Shown here piece after piece: positions 7,641 through 8,672 of a stretch of DNA of 8,796 nucleotides (its first letter is position 1; every line of letters begins with the position of its first letter). The DNA comes from Candidatus Asgardarchaeum abyssi. Its GTDB lineage: Archaea > Asgardarchaeota > Asgardarchaeia > Asgardarchaeales > Asgardarchaeaceae. The notes under the pieces are model-generated. The model was not told the origin of the DNA, ran no database searches, and saw nothing but the letters and a program-made list of their open reading frames with translations. The stretch spans positions 1 through 8,796 of the forward strand of contig JBECUL010000078.1 of NCBI GenBank assembly GCA_040225955.1. Reading direction: 5' to 3'. The position numbers were made by a program, and so were the translations under genes.

Positions 7641-7865
7641 ATTATGCACCACTTGACGTTCATTAATATCAATTTAAGTGGTAAGGCACAGATGAAAACA
7701 AAGCAATAATAGTAACAAAACTATTTACTTTTTCATCTTTATTTTTTTCGATACCTACGATCAAAATTCTTTTGTACATTTCAATAGTTAATTGAGTCAA
7801 TAAATAAAATTATTAGTATGGAATTATTAAACAATAATATAAGTCTATTCTTAGGCGGTGGTTGT

Positions 7866-8231
7866 ATGGGTGTGGCAGATGTTGTTAATGAGATTATGGC
7901 AAAGCATGTACAGATTGGTGCTGTAGTAATTTTCAGAAATGATGGAACAATAGTCCATTCCGTAGGGCAATGGCAATTGAATCCAAATGAAATTCTTGAT
8001 GTTATTAAGAATAAACAACCATCAATAACAATTCAAGGTGTAAAATATTCTATTTTTACAAACACCGAAGATTCCTTTATAGCTTCTAATTTGCAAGGAT
8101 TGGGTCATGTTATAGGCGCTGCGATAAATGATAAGGGATGGATTATTGTTTACGCTGGCAAAGACGCTGATAAAGCGGAGATATTGAGAACATTGATTGG
8201 CGCTTCCTCGAAACTGAAAAATCTTGTGTAG
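7866..8231 (+). CDS. Profilin-like protein (Asgard-type profilin candidate), 121 aa from the ATG at 7866. The maximal ORF starts at 7818.
   Basis: The layout matches a profilin: an N-terminal helix (VADVVNEIMAK), then GAVVIFRNDGTIVHSVGQWQLNPNEILDVI, compared with the eukaryotic pattern AAI.G.DG.VWA.S..F.L.P.E. This is followed by ITIQGVKYSIFTNTEDSFIASNLQGLGHVIG, compared with L.LGG.KY.VIR.....I.GKKG..G, and a C-terminal helix. GGTGG lies 4 nt upstream of ATG 7866, the same arrangement as at the GGGPS start. No Shine-Dalgarno motif precedes ATG 7818. Confidence 0.6.
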   Translation: MGVADVVNEIMAKHVQIGAVVIFRNDGTIVHSVGQWQLNPNEILDVIKNKQPSITIQGVKYSIFTNTEDSFIASNLQGLGHVIGAAINDKGWIIVYAGKDADKAEILRTLIGASSKLKNLV

Positions 8232-8519: not shown

Positions 8520-8672
8520 TAGCAGCACCGTTCCGTGGTCGAAATGGGAACGGGTGTTTCCCCTTGCCTATGACCGTCGGCAAAGCCGACAGCCATCCGG
8601 GCTTCCCGTCGGCTCTCGCACGACAGTACAACCCGGACCGCGCAAGGGCTTAACTTTCACGCGGTGCTGCTA
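8520..8672 (-). rRNA. Circularly permuted 5S rRNA gene (3' half, then helix I hairpin, then 5' half) flanked by a BHB processing motif
   Basis: The minus strand 8672->8520 reads TAGCAGCACCG-CGTG-AAA-GTTAAGCCCTTGCGCGGTCCGGGTTGTACTGTCGTGCGAGAGCCGACGGGAAGCCCGGATGGCTGTCGGC-TTT-GCCGACGGTCATAGGCAAGGGGAAACACCCGTTCCCATTTCGAC-CACG-GAA-CGGTGCTGCTA. All conserved archaeal 5S blocks are present, but in swapped order. These blocks are CAUAG, helix II GCAAGGG/CCCUUGC, AACACCCGUUCCCAUUUCGA, AAGUUAAGCC, GUUGUACUG...GCGAGAG...GGGAAGCC and helix I. Details are in the findings. Confidence 0.85.

Follow-up and report, generated by a model that had tools for sequence, protein, structure and literature searches.

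A circularly permuted 5S rRNA gene of Asgard archaea, bounded by a bulge-helix-bulge motif and probably processed into a circular RNA

The minus strand of the window, that is, of the whole 8,796-nucleotide stretch of Candidatus Asgardarchaeum abyssi DNA that was analysed, encodes a complete 5S rRNA in permuted order (8655->8532). We consider it likely, with a probability of about 0.8, that the minus-strand region 8674-8518 is the Asgard 5S rRNA gene in a circularly permuted form, the transcript of which is processed at a motif of the bulge-helix-bulge (BHB) type into a circular 5S rRNA. Within a single transcription unit the 3' portion comes first and the 5' portion second, and the two helix I strands are linked by UUU. 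The initial annotation had described this swapped order of blocks on the minus strand, and we found every piece of it in place. The parts of the gene and of the motif at its ends are listed here; RF00001 and R1 are the covariance models used below.

8585..8655, minus strand: 3' two-thirds of 5S, from the RF00001 3'-half alignment and the R1 alignment
8594-8585, minus strand: helix I 3' strand, the end of the 3' two-thirds block
8584-8582, minus strand: UUU loop capping helix I, at the position of both ends in a normal 5S
8581-8572, minus strand: helix I 5' strand, the start of the 5' third
8532..8581, minus strand: 5' third of 5S, from the RF00001 5'-half alignment and the R1 alignment
8655->8532, minus strand: permuted 5S rRNA, retained piece of 124 nt, full-length R1 match
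8674-8662, minus strand: outer (processing) helix, leader strand GATAGCAGCACCG = GAUAGCAGCACCG, in 13 contiguous pairs with 8530-8518
8661-8658, minus strand: central BHB helix, leader strand CGUG (CGTG), 4 bp with CACG
8657-8655, minus strand: leader 3-nt bulge AAA, predicted cut 8656|8655; the R1 match starts at 8655
8537-8534, minus strand: central BHB helix, trailer strand CACG, pairing with 8661-8658
8533-8531, minus strand: trailer 3-nt bulge GAA, predicted cut 8532|8531; the R1 match ends at 8532
8530-8518, minus strand: outer helix, trailer strand CGGTGCTGCTATC = CGGUGCUGCUAUC, pairing with 8674-8662

The upstream block (8655-8585) contains, in order, AGUUAAG, the helix II 3' strand, helices V/IV with loops E and D, and the helix I 3' strand. 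It is followed, beyond the cap, by the block 8581-8532 with the helix I 5' strand, CAUAG (loop A), the helix II 5' strand, and helix III with loop C up to ...CACGGA; the sequence running through the helix I cap is GGCUUUGCC. The window contains this permuted-order pattern once, and none of 200 shuffles contains it. When RF00001 was run on the native locus, it gave two truncated half matches in swapped order, one of 25.5 bits to the model's 3' half (8677-8584) and one of 21 bits to its 5' half (8581-8475), and no match in the native locus reached the Rfam 5S gathering cut-off of 38 bits. Split, swapped matches of this kind had been predicted for a permuted gene. A score below gathering is what a permuted gene should give; it concerns the gene order and not the identity of the RNA.

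The complementary check, a search with the blocks back in register, was run as a mirror-image test. For this we built a covariance model, R1, from seven Rfam-verified colinear 5S genes (90-106 bits) that were permuted in silico at CGGA|AGU. R1 matched 8655->8532 over its full length (model 1-126) with 86.5 bits and an E-value of 2e-18, and the ends of the match are exactly the predicted cut sites. It is the sole match in the window, where the runner-up scored 8 bits. On its own colinear source genes R1 returned split matches of only 34-50 bits.

Joining the two ends at the predicted junction 8532|8655 gives ...CGACCACGGA|AGUUAAGCC (in RNA, ...CACGGA|AGUUAAG; in the longer form, CGACCACGGA|AGUUAAGCCC), which restores the 5S sequence CACGGAAGUUAAGCC. 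Both the 124-nt length of the piece between the cuts and this junction agree with what the initial annotation had proposed. The rebuilt sequence aligns with haloarchaeal and Priestia 5S genes as single colinear BLAST pieces across the junction, and with the RF00001 consensus there are no gaps at that point. It forms standard pairs at 33 of the 34 consensus 5S pairs in the window sequence, and the circle has the three-way junction of 5S as its MFE fold (z = -4.0). RNAalifold on 18 rebuilt Asgard sequences recovered helices II-V, with compensatory changes in 17 of 22 pairs. When the Rfam structure was projected on the rebuilt sequences, 85.2% of the cells were paired as against 69.5% in shuffles, none of which (0/500) reached 85.2%, and the paired share was 35-49% when the partners were slid. 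The loop motifs CAUAG, CCCAU..CGA, GAAGUUAAGC, GUACUG and GGGAA are invariant in alignment A2.

The leader and the trailer of the gene form the BHB. In the window there are two 3-nt bulges on opposite strands, each lying 3' of its 4-bp central-helix strand, and this core lies, as in the strict hBHBh' form, between the 13-bp outer helix and a GUU/GAC helix of 3 bp. The latter (GTT/GAC in DNA, on the 5S side) consists of G-C, U-A and U.G. The CACG of the central helix (8537-8534) would, once ligated, overlap the helix III 3' strand (ACGG). The central helix, both bulges and the inner helix lie where they had first been placed. The outer helix had been drawn as 11 bp between TAGCAGCACCG (8672-8662) and CGGTGCTGCTA (8530-8520); this pairing is correct, but the helix is 13 bp long. 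When leader and trailer were shuffled in a fixed register, 1 of 1,000,000 shuffles had 4/4 central pairs together with at least 13 outer pairs, and a rate of ~1e-6 excludes chance as the source of the BHB pairing. In the unconstrained MFE fold of the precursor the leader CGUG pairs elsewhere and the BHB is not drawn. Forcing the BHB costs only 1.6 kcal/mol above the MFE, and in the remainder the 5S helices I, II and IV/V are then formed. Since folding draws no BHB unaided, thermodynamics alone neither finds nor excludes the motif, and we used constrained energies and covariation instead.

In 13 lineages, cognate leader/trailer duplexes had a mean energy of -20.1 kcal/mol versus -9.6 kcal/mol for non-cognate ones, a difference that 0 of 100,000 permutations reached. 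The geometry of a 4-bp helix with 3-nt bulges is common to all 17 non-Heimdall sequences. Outer-helix positions 1-6 are paired in 17 of 17 sequences with 2-5 pair types each, and central pairs 1-3 are likewise kept in every one of the 17 lineage sequences. The outer helix covaries in L038 and L102, the latter, from the window's own clade, carrying three consecutive double compensatory changes in it; in L001-L003 its leader strand is 100% identical despite diverged flanks. The permutation is thus conserved in related genomes, and their BHB helices carry compensatory changes, as had been expected. Three breakpoints occur among the lineages (GGA|AG, GGAA|G and GGCAG|UU), and all of them rebuild a consensus of the same length, but only if the cut follows bulge nucleotide 2, as is canonical. 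Support for this register comes from lineages in which the bulges are not all A (AUA in L102, AAU/AGA in Hel and GAU in Jord), because these also rebuild the 5S consensus at the canonical cut. The constancy of the rebuilt sequence, while the breakpoint drifts by 1-2 nt between lineages, points to selection acting on the ligated product. The motif varies in other respects. The 5S-side helix (GUU/GAC) is weak, and in most other lineages it is absent or 1 bp long, so that the motif outside the window's clade is a relaxed form. The fourth central pair is G.A in AAG-type lineages. In Heimdall-type loci an extra hairpin breaks up the outer helix, and RNAalifold on these precursors draws helix III and not the BHB central helix.

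As the initial annotation had it, AT-rich DNA lies on one side of the gene and a tRNA on the other; the AT-rich DNA is upstream and promoter-like, and the tRNA is downstream:

8711-8697, minus strand: promoter-like element, a BRE-like CGAAAAA (8711-8705) and a TATA-like TTTATCAA (8704-8697)
8508-8374, minus strand: tRNA-Trp(CCA) with a 62-nt intron (8470-8409), from an RF00005 match of 49.4 bits and the exon/intron parse

From the base of the processing stem it is 30 nt upstream to the start of the TATA-like box. In the window clade, Odin, Jord, L023 and L076, whose flanks have otherwise diverged, the same element, CGAAAAnTTTAWnAA, has its start 29-33 nt upstream of the stem. From the known geometry of archaeal BRE/TATA elements, we infer that 8711-8697 works as a promoter. 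The tRNA-Trp starts 9 nt after the 13-bp stem, or 11 nt (8519-8509) after position 8520, and is probably co-transcribed with the permuted 5S. Its intron has a BHB of its own (CUCC/GGAG with bulges AGA/AGA) and would need the same endonuclease as the 5S BHB; a cut after bulge nucleotide 2 gives a 73-nt mature tRNA with the correct anticodon loop CUCCAGA. ARAGORN found no tRNA in the window on account of this long intron, and the tRNA was detected with the Rfam model. In L001-L003, L005 and L006 the 5S is likewise linked to tRNA-Trp, and in the clade members L038 and L102 a 23S gene starts 600-670 nt from the permuted 5S. A tandem 5S array or an assembly artefact was rejected as the origin of the swapped order, given the unique flanks, the upstream promoter, the downstream tRNA and the recurrence in independent assemblies. 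Synteny traced through the profilin-like neighbour yielded only three clusters of homologues, and in a 74%-identical relative the 5S-tRNA-Trp unit lies ~4 kb from this gene, not adjoining.

We found permuted 5S genes at over 30 independent loci, nearly all of which carry an Asgard label, and in each of the Asgard lineages that could be sampled; the named groups are Asgardarchaeia, Heimdall, Odin, Thor, Hel, Njord and Jord. Full-length R1 scores were 54-91 bits at 19 genome loci (almost all labelled Asgard) and at least 14 metagenome loci, and none of the 19 genome loci reached the Rfam 5S threshold. Two loci are exceptions in labelling, the contig of L008 being labelled bacterial and L023 Thermoproteota. 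In the metagenome collection the permuted loci, at least 14, scored 71-91 bits versus 28-45 bits for other matches of the relaxed search pattern, which were rejected, being mostly ordinary colinear 5S genes with a chance GGGAA upstream. We found no colinear 5S in 131 kb of related loci. A scan of metagenome DNA contigs for the colinear junction, which a diverged copy would escape, was also negative, as is expected if the junction exists in RNA alone. Closed Heimdallarchaeum genomes have been published with the statement that 5S genes could not be predicted. There were no Lokiarchaeia among the matches, for which either the search pattern or a true difference could account. We incline to the view, less firmly than for the window itself, that many Asgard lineages (the groups named above), possibly all, have their 5S only as a permuted gene and build ribosomes with a circular 5S produced by the tRNA-splicing machinery.

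Established knowledge of BHB processing suggests how such a transcript would mature. Transcription would start at the base of the 13-bp leader/trailer stem, from the BRE/TATA promoter ~30 nt upstream, and the stem would run on into the canonical BHB, a 4-bp helix with a 3-nt bulge on either side, on opposite strands. The tRNA-splicing endonuclease EndA is predicted to cut after bulge nucleotide 2, at 8656|8655 and 8532|8531. An RtcB-type ligase would then close the 124-nt piece, so that ...CACGGA|AGUUAAG restores the helix III / loop region, and the ligated RNA may refold into the normal 5S three-way junction. Helix I, the site of the normal 5S termini, would be closed by the 3-nt loop here and by stable tetraloops in relatives, and the mature 5S most likely remains a covalently closed circle in the ribosome. 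The latter is suggested by the caps themselves, because a helix I capped by tetraloops (UUU here) probably belongs to a closed circle: in addition to the UUU of the window, we found UUCG, UACG, UGCG, GCAA and GUUA in homologous loci.

All sequence features other than the ligation would fit equally well with a permuted gene that has a linear product, the BHB being cut, or the ends trimmed to the stem, without ligation, which would leave the helix III internal loop nicked and helix I capped. Permuted final RNAs do exist, as in the brown-algal mitochondrial 5S (PMC4267664) and the 23S of P. furiosus. Against this, helix-held EndA products are normally ligated in archaea (tRNA introns, pre-16S/23S circles and Thermoproteus SRP RNA), and the nick would fall in one of the most conserved stretches of 5S. 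In addition, the three breakpoints each yield the exact consensus number of nucleotides at the junction, which is expected if selection sees the joined sequence, and we therefore regard the unligated product as unlikely. The circle could also be an intermediate that is reopened at the helix I cap to yield a conventional linear 5S, as happens to the permuted tRNAs of Cyanidioschyzon in the account cited below. Yet the cap, of only 3-4 nt, falls in a stable structural tetraloop class (UUCG, UACG, UGCG or GCAA) in nearly all lineages, it has no spacer and no conserved processing motif, and helix I is closed in every case even though its length varies from 7 to 13 bp among lineages. Reopening is thus quite improbable.

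That the locus is a non-functional rearranged copy or an assembly artefact, with the true colinear 5S elsewhere, might be suspected from its score below the Rfam curated threshold, and the colinear-5S search covered related loci and metagenome contigs. However, more than 30 independent assemblies and lineages share the arrangement, each with unique flanks, and there are compensatory changes in the 5S helices as well as in the processing stem. The promoter is also conserved, and the lack of any colinear 5S in the related loci, of its junction in the metagenomes, and of predictable 5S genes in the closed Heimdallarchaeum genomes points in the same direction. We consider this reading close to refuted and retain the permuted gene with a ligated, circular product.

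The gene of the universal 5S rRNA normally belongs to those most easily located, and the MIMAG criteria of genome quality ask for it. Genomes in which the 5S stays below the Rfam threshold, as at the 19 genome loci, would be marked down by these criteria. If the permuted gene is what we propose, the "missing" 5S genes of Asgard genomes are explained, and the annotation can be corrected at once because the permuted covariance model detects the gene at 54-91 bits. It would also represent an unreported mode of 5S biogenesis, in which maturation depends on EndA and RtcB, and a circular 5S is predicted in ribosomes, which would add to the circular 23S reported recently. Eukaryotes, whose 5S genes are ordinary and colinear, have their closest known relatives in the Asgard archaea. 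The archaeal relatives of eukaryotes would differ from all other cellular life in making the universal 5S, and the distribution of the permutation, above all in Hodarchaeales and Lokiarchaeia, becomes a testable character for scenarios of eukaryogenesis.

Permuted tRNAs were reportedly described in Archaea by Chan, Cozen and Lowe in 2011. Permuted tRNA genes resemble the Asgard 5S in having the 3' part first, a BHB at the transcript ends and maturation via a circle, which for the 5S is our proposal. In Cyanidioschyzon merolae, according to the work of Soma et al. 2007 as cited in PMC4267664, the circle is later opened. In permuted tRNAs the linker is removed by RNase P and tRNase Z to give a linear product, whereas the linker of the Asgard 5S is a 3-4-nt structural loop, and no re-opening is expected.

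Archaeal pre-16S and pre-23S rRNAs share with the Asgard 5S a leader/trailer stem with a BHB, where EndA cleavage is followed by ligation, as we suppose for the 5S. In Asgard, 16S and 23S transcripts have been seen in circular form, and the circularisation machinery is therefore active there; mature circular or permuted rRNA is known for 23S. The difference is that the pre-16S/23S genes are colinear and their natural ends are joined, while the Asgard 5S gene is permuted and joining creates an internal conserved sequence. The papers on pre-16S/23S circularisation state that 5S is not processed in that way, and known archaeal 5S maturation uses other nucleases. Our search of open-access papers and bioRxiv turned up no archaeal 5S gene described as permuted or BHB-flanked, and a report elsewhere is possible. 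Within that literature, the lack of precedent suspected at the outset holds, the case of brown-algal mitochondria being different. There, the "permuted" 5S has a terminal hairpin in place of helix I and ends up as a linear, permuted RNA (Valach et al. 2014, PMC4267664). Both RNAs have their ends away from helix I and are missed by standard models. However, the mitochondrial 5S, which belongs to an organelle and not to an archaeon, has no BHB and no ligation, and its colinear sequence is not restored; we rejected it as prior art because of this different architecture.

An engineered cp5S in E. coli, in which the native ends are closed by a 4-nt connector, is tolerated by ribosomes (Huang et al. 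2020, PMC7283268). Like the Asgard 5S it has a capped helix I, and such a cap is compatible with active ribosomes. Unlike the Asgard 5S it is an artificial RNA that was opened in loop C or D and made part of 23S by fusion, with no free circle. In Thermoproteus tenax, the SRP RNA has a permuted gene from which EndA makes a mature, functional circle (Plagens et al. 2015, eLife, PMC4731332). In both this and the Asgard 5S, an essential, universally conserved structured RNA seemed "missing" because its gene is permuted, and the termini, which adjoin a conserved loop, make up a tRNA splicing endonuclease site. The two cases differ in the RNA family (SRP RNA versus ribosomal 5S), in the circularity, which is demonstrated for the SRP RNA and deduced for the 5S, and in the spread, from a few species of the single genus Thermoproteus to at least seven named Asgard groups with a breakpoint drifting by 1-2 nt. 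A permuted gene whose transcript is mended by the tRNA-splicing machinery would be a new route to 5S rRNA.

Rfam reported no 5S rRNA in the window at curated thresholds, and the only match was a tRNA at 8508-8374 (49.4 bits). In E-value mode, the Rfam 5S model RF00001 aligned 8677-8584 to its 3' half (25.5 bits) and 8581-8475 to its 5' half (21 bits), both below its gathering score of 38. These are the split hits in reverse order that the initial annotation had predicted for a circularly permuted 5S gene. The re-permutation check was run in mirror image, with genuine 5S genes permuted and the window left native. BLAST of the rebuilt 124-nt sequence, in which the piece 8655->8532 is re-ordered across the predicted junction, against plasmid records returned single colinear pieces spanning the junction at query position 52/53 (Halomicrobium, query 8-124, 72% identity; Priestia, query 13-64), and seven of these targets are genuine 5S genes by Rfam (90.5-106.4 bits). 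For the covariance model R1, these seven 5S sequences were cut in silico at the homologous CGGA|AGU position, their native ends were linked by a neutral AAAA and the Rfam structure was rotated to match. With filters off, R1 gave one hit on the native window, 8655->8532, over model positions 1-126 (86.5 bits, E 2e-18; runner-up 8 bits), and the ends of this hit fall on the cut sites that the bulges predict. The colinear originals of the seven sequences scored just 34-50 bits with R1, in split hits. The rebuilt sequence shows no gap at the junction against the RF00001 consensus, 33/34 consensus base pairs are standard, and at minimum free energy (MFE) the circle folds into the 5S three-way junction (-57.1 kcal/mol, z = -4.0).

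On the minus strand, AT-rich DNA is followed by GAUAGCAGCACCG-CGUG-AAA-GUUAAGCC...GGGAAGCCCGGAUGGCUGUCGGC-UUU, and the UUU by GCCGACGGUCAUAGGCAAGGGGAAACACCCGUUCCCAUUUCGAC-CACG-GAA-CGGUGCUGCUAUC, 9 nt and a tRNA, as read from the sequence. Each piece of the permuted 5S and of its bulge-helix-bulge (BHB) motif named in the initial annotation is present at its coordinates; the outer helix, described there as 11 bp, exists but is in fact 13 bp long (8674-8662 with 8530-8518). The original observation is confirmed. Computation, as far as it can go, supports the permuted-5S interpretation for the DNA, and the RNA-level steps of maturation are inferred. The features around the gene are as follows.

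7818-8231, plus strand: 137-aa ORF, weakly matching Pfam Profilin (E 3.4e-4, 21.2 bits; cut-off 25 bits)
8508-8374, minus strand: tRNA-Trp (Rfam 49.4 bits) with a 62-nt intron at 8470-8409
8704-8697, minus strand: TATA-like box, part of a CGAAAAnTTTAWnAA element
Neighbours of the permuted 5S in the window: ECF transporter, GGGP synthase, OPT transporter and the 137-aa profilin-like ORF

The 137-aa ORF, which may be a divergent Asgard profilin, has only three homologue clusters among 5.8 billion proteins.

A locus-by-locus parse revealed the same BHB architecture in 17/17 non-Heimdall sequences: a central helix of 4 bp, one 3-nt bulge per strand, located 3' of that strand's half of the central helix, and an outer helix that runs unbroken for 6-16 bp. 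Positions 1-6 of the outer helix (2-5 pair types per position) and central pairs 1-3 are paired in all 17, and the outer-helix sequences are unrelated from lineage to lineage. Cognate leader/trailer duplexes average -20.1 kcal/mol versus -9.6 for non-cognate ones, and 0/100,000 permutations reached the cognate total. The proposed comparison of orthologous loci bore the annotation out, in that relatives keep the permutation and carry compensatory changes in the BHB helices; L102, a locus of the window's clade, has three consecutive double compensatory changes in the outer helix (GCAGCACCG/CGGUGCUGC in the window vs GCAGUGUCG/CGACACUGC in L102). Only 1/1,000,000 shuffles of the window's leader and trailer reproduces the structure at fixed register, and forcing the BHB costs +1.6 kcal/mol over the MFE while the remainder folds as 5S helices I, II and IV/V.

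A distinct arrangement was observed at the Heimdall-type loci (L007, L009-L011, L018-L020, L024, L025, L046, L084, L087 and L093; e.g. L009:1161-1388, minus strand). Their leader holds a ~30-nt covarying hairpin between an 11-bp outer helix and a CAGG-AAA half-site, and the second half-site, NCAG-AAA, abuts the outer helix. Either a BHB on a three-way junction releases a circle of 121 nt in one step, or a circle of 153 nt comes first and then loses a ~31-nt intron-like piece at a second BHB (CCUG/CAGG).

The breakpoint lies at ...CGGA|AGUUAAG in the window clade, Odin and Jord, at ...CGGAA|GYUAAG in Thor, Njord-like and L012-like loci, L023 and L076, and at ...CGGCAG|UYAAG in Hel-like loci (|AUAAG in L014). 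In silico, cutting between bulge nucleotides 2 and 3 and joining the ends gives the consensus with the correct nucleotide number in every case. In loci with bulges other than all A (L102, AUA; Hel, AAU/AGA; Jord, GAU), a different cut position would yield an incorrect sequence. For the window tRNA-Trp intron, cutting by this bulge 2/3 rule likewise leaves a 73-nt tRNA, whose anticodon loop, CUCCAGA, is a proper one. The breakpoint drifts while the product stays constant, as expected if selection acts on the ligated RNA. In two Thor-/Heimdall-labelled MAGs (L022:3022-3247, plus strand; L021:6671-6827, minus strand), 5S loop C / helix III contains a ~28-nt insertion with its own hairpin (AUGAAG...CUUCAU) and the predicted circle is 149 nt; this insertion may represent an expansion segment or another element that is excised.

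RNAalifold on 18 rebuilt sequences recovered helices II, III, IV and V, with compensatory changes in 17/22 pairs. When the Rfam structure was projected on the rebuilt sequences, 85.2% of cells paired vs 69.5% in shuffles (0/500 reach 85.2%), both-side changes occurred in 105 cells vs 41.5 in shuffles, and sliding the partners by 1-3 columns lowered pairing to 35-49%.

Among named homologues of the profilin-like ORF, the closest (74% identity) comes from an NCBI MAG that bears the label Candidatus Asgardarchaeia, a class of the Asgard kingdom Promethearchaeati; two further contigs belong to the window's species (98.6-98.8% identity). The 74% relative carries the permuted 5S and tRNA-Trp at L001:12128-12514, ~4 kb from the profilin-like gene. 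Its BHB leader and trailer are identical to those of the window, the promoter region and spacer have diverged, and helix II shows a compensatory change (CUUGC/GCAAG -> CUCGC/GCGAG). A DNA pattern of 3' 5S motifs (GTACTG...GGGAA) followed within 22-50 nt by 5' motifs (CAYAG-N19-CYCATYYCGA) occurs once in the window and in 0/200 shuffles. Across 185,579 prokaryotic species, each represented by one genome, it matched 19 loci, 13 of them labelled Asgard (Heimdallarchaeota, Odinarchaeota, Thorarchaeota, Helarchaeota, Njordarchaeota, Jordarchaeales or Promethearchaeati), 4 'uncultured archaeon', 1 Thermoproteota and 1 a bacterial MAG. The last two, L023 (JAPDJY010000015.1, Jord-type 5S) and L008 (DATKTP010000169.1, Candidatus Deferrimicrobium, Hel-type 5S), are probably mis-binned or mislabelled Asgard contigs. 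None of the 19 reached the Rfam 5S threshold, and R1 gave full-length hits of 54-91 bits on all except L021 (30.9 bits), which is cut off at a contig end. A looser pattern in metagenome contigs added at least 14 permuted loci (R1 71-91 bits), cleanly apart from the ordinary colinear 5S genes it also returned (28-45 bits). Lokiarchaeia were absent among the pattern matches, for which the pattern itself or biology could account.

In the window clade, Odin, Jord, L023 and L076, the BRE/TATA-like CGAAAAnTTTAWnAA element lies upstream of the stem and begins 29-33 nt from its base. From this distance and the usual archaeal spacing, transcription would start at the base of the leader/trailer stem. 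An oligo-T run follows the trailer and directly abuts tRNA-Trp in the window, suggesting that the two genes may be co-transcribed. The window spacer is 11 nt by the annotated coordinates (8519-8509, minus strand; 9 nt after the 13-bp stem) and ends in UUUU; that of the 74% relative (L001:12311-12369) is ~36 nt longer and AT-rich, and possibly holds a promoter for its tRNA-Trp. In two clade members, 600-670 nt separate the permuted 5S from the start of a 23S gene, which is divergent in L038:1460-2056 (plus strand) and shares the strand of the upstream 5S in L102:3275-3707 (plus strand), while in the window and L001 the 5S is linked to tRNA-Trp instead. The window tRNA-Trp intron has a BHB of its own (CUCC/GGAG, bulges AGA/AGA). 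It also contains a CUGA box (8448-8445); the AGCAGGUCUG that precedes this box is complementary to the spliced anticodon arm, and the N+5 rule points to nucleotide 39. After a second box-like stretch, AUGACGA (8437-8431), comes CUCUGGAG (8428-8421), which is complementary to the anticodon loop near nucleotide 34. These boxes resemble the C/D-box guide of euryarchaeal tRNA-Trp introns, although the D-like box precedes the C-like one and the C...D order arises only if the intron is circularised.

Helix I, the normal site of the 5S ends, is closed by UUU in the window and by UUCG, UACG, UGCG, GCAA or GUUA on 7-13 bp stems in relatives. These are stable structural caps, not processing spacers, which suggests that processing leaves the cap intact and the mature 5S is a closed circle (probability roughly 0.65-0.7). 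Precedents support this reading: the permuted SRP RNA of Thermoproteus matures to a circle made by the splicing endonuclease (PMC4731332), E. coli ribosomes function with a 5S whose native ends are joined by a 4-nt connector (PMC7283268), and circular 16S and 23S transcripts have been reported in Asgard archaea.

No colinear 5S was found in 131 kb of sequence from related loci, and a 35-nt probe for the lineage's colinear junction had no match in 241 million metagenome records. Wu et al. reported that 5S genes were not predictable in closed Heimdallarchaeum genomes. No Rfam 15 family catches the permuted 5S of the window or the 19 genome loci, and full-text searches of open-access papers and bioRxiv turned up no description of a permuted 5S gene in archaea; given that scope, we consider it quite likely that such a gene was previously unreported. 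The one 'permuted 5S' found there, in brown-algal mitochondria (PMC4267664), differs from the window locus in that a hairpin replaces helix I and no re-joining occurs. Described archaeal 5S maturation uses other nucleases, and circularisation is explicitly said not to be involved, unlike the BHB circularisation predicted for the Asgard permuted 5S. The closest case is the Thermoproteus SRP RNA, which shares the mechanism of BHB-dependent circularisation; the novelty lies in 5S rRNA as the substrate and in the spread across many Asgard lineages.
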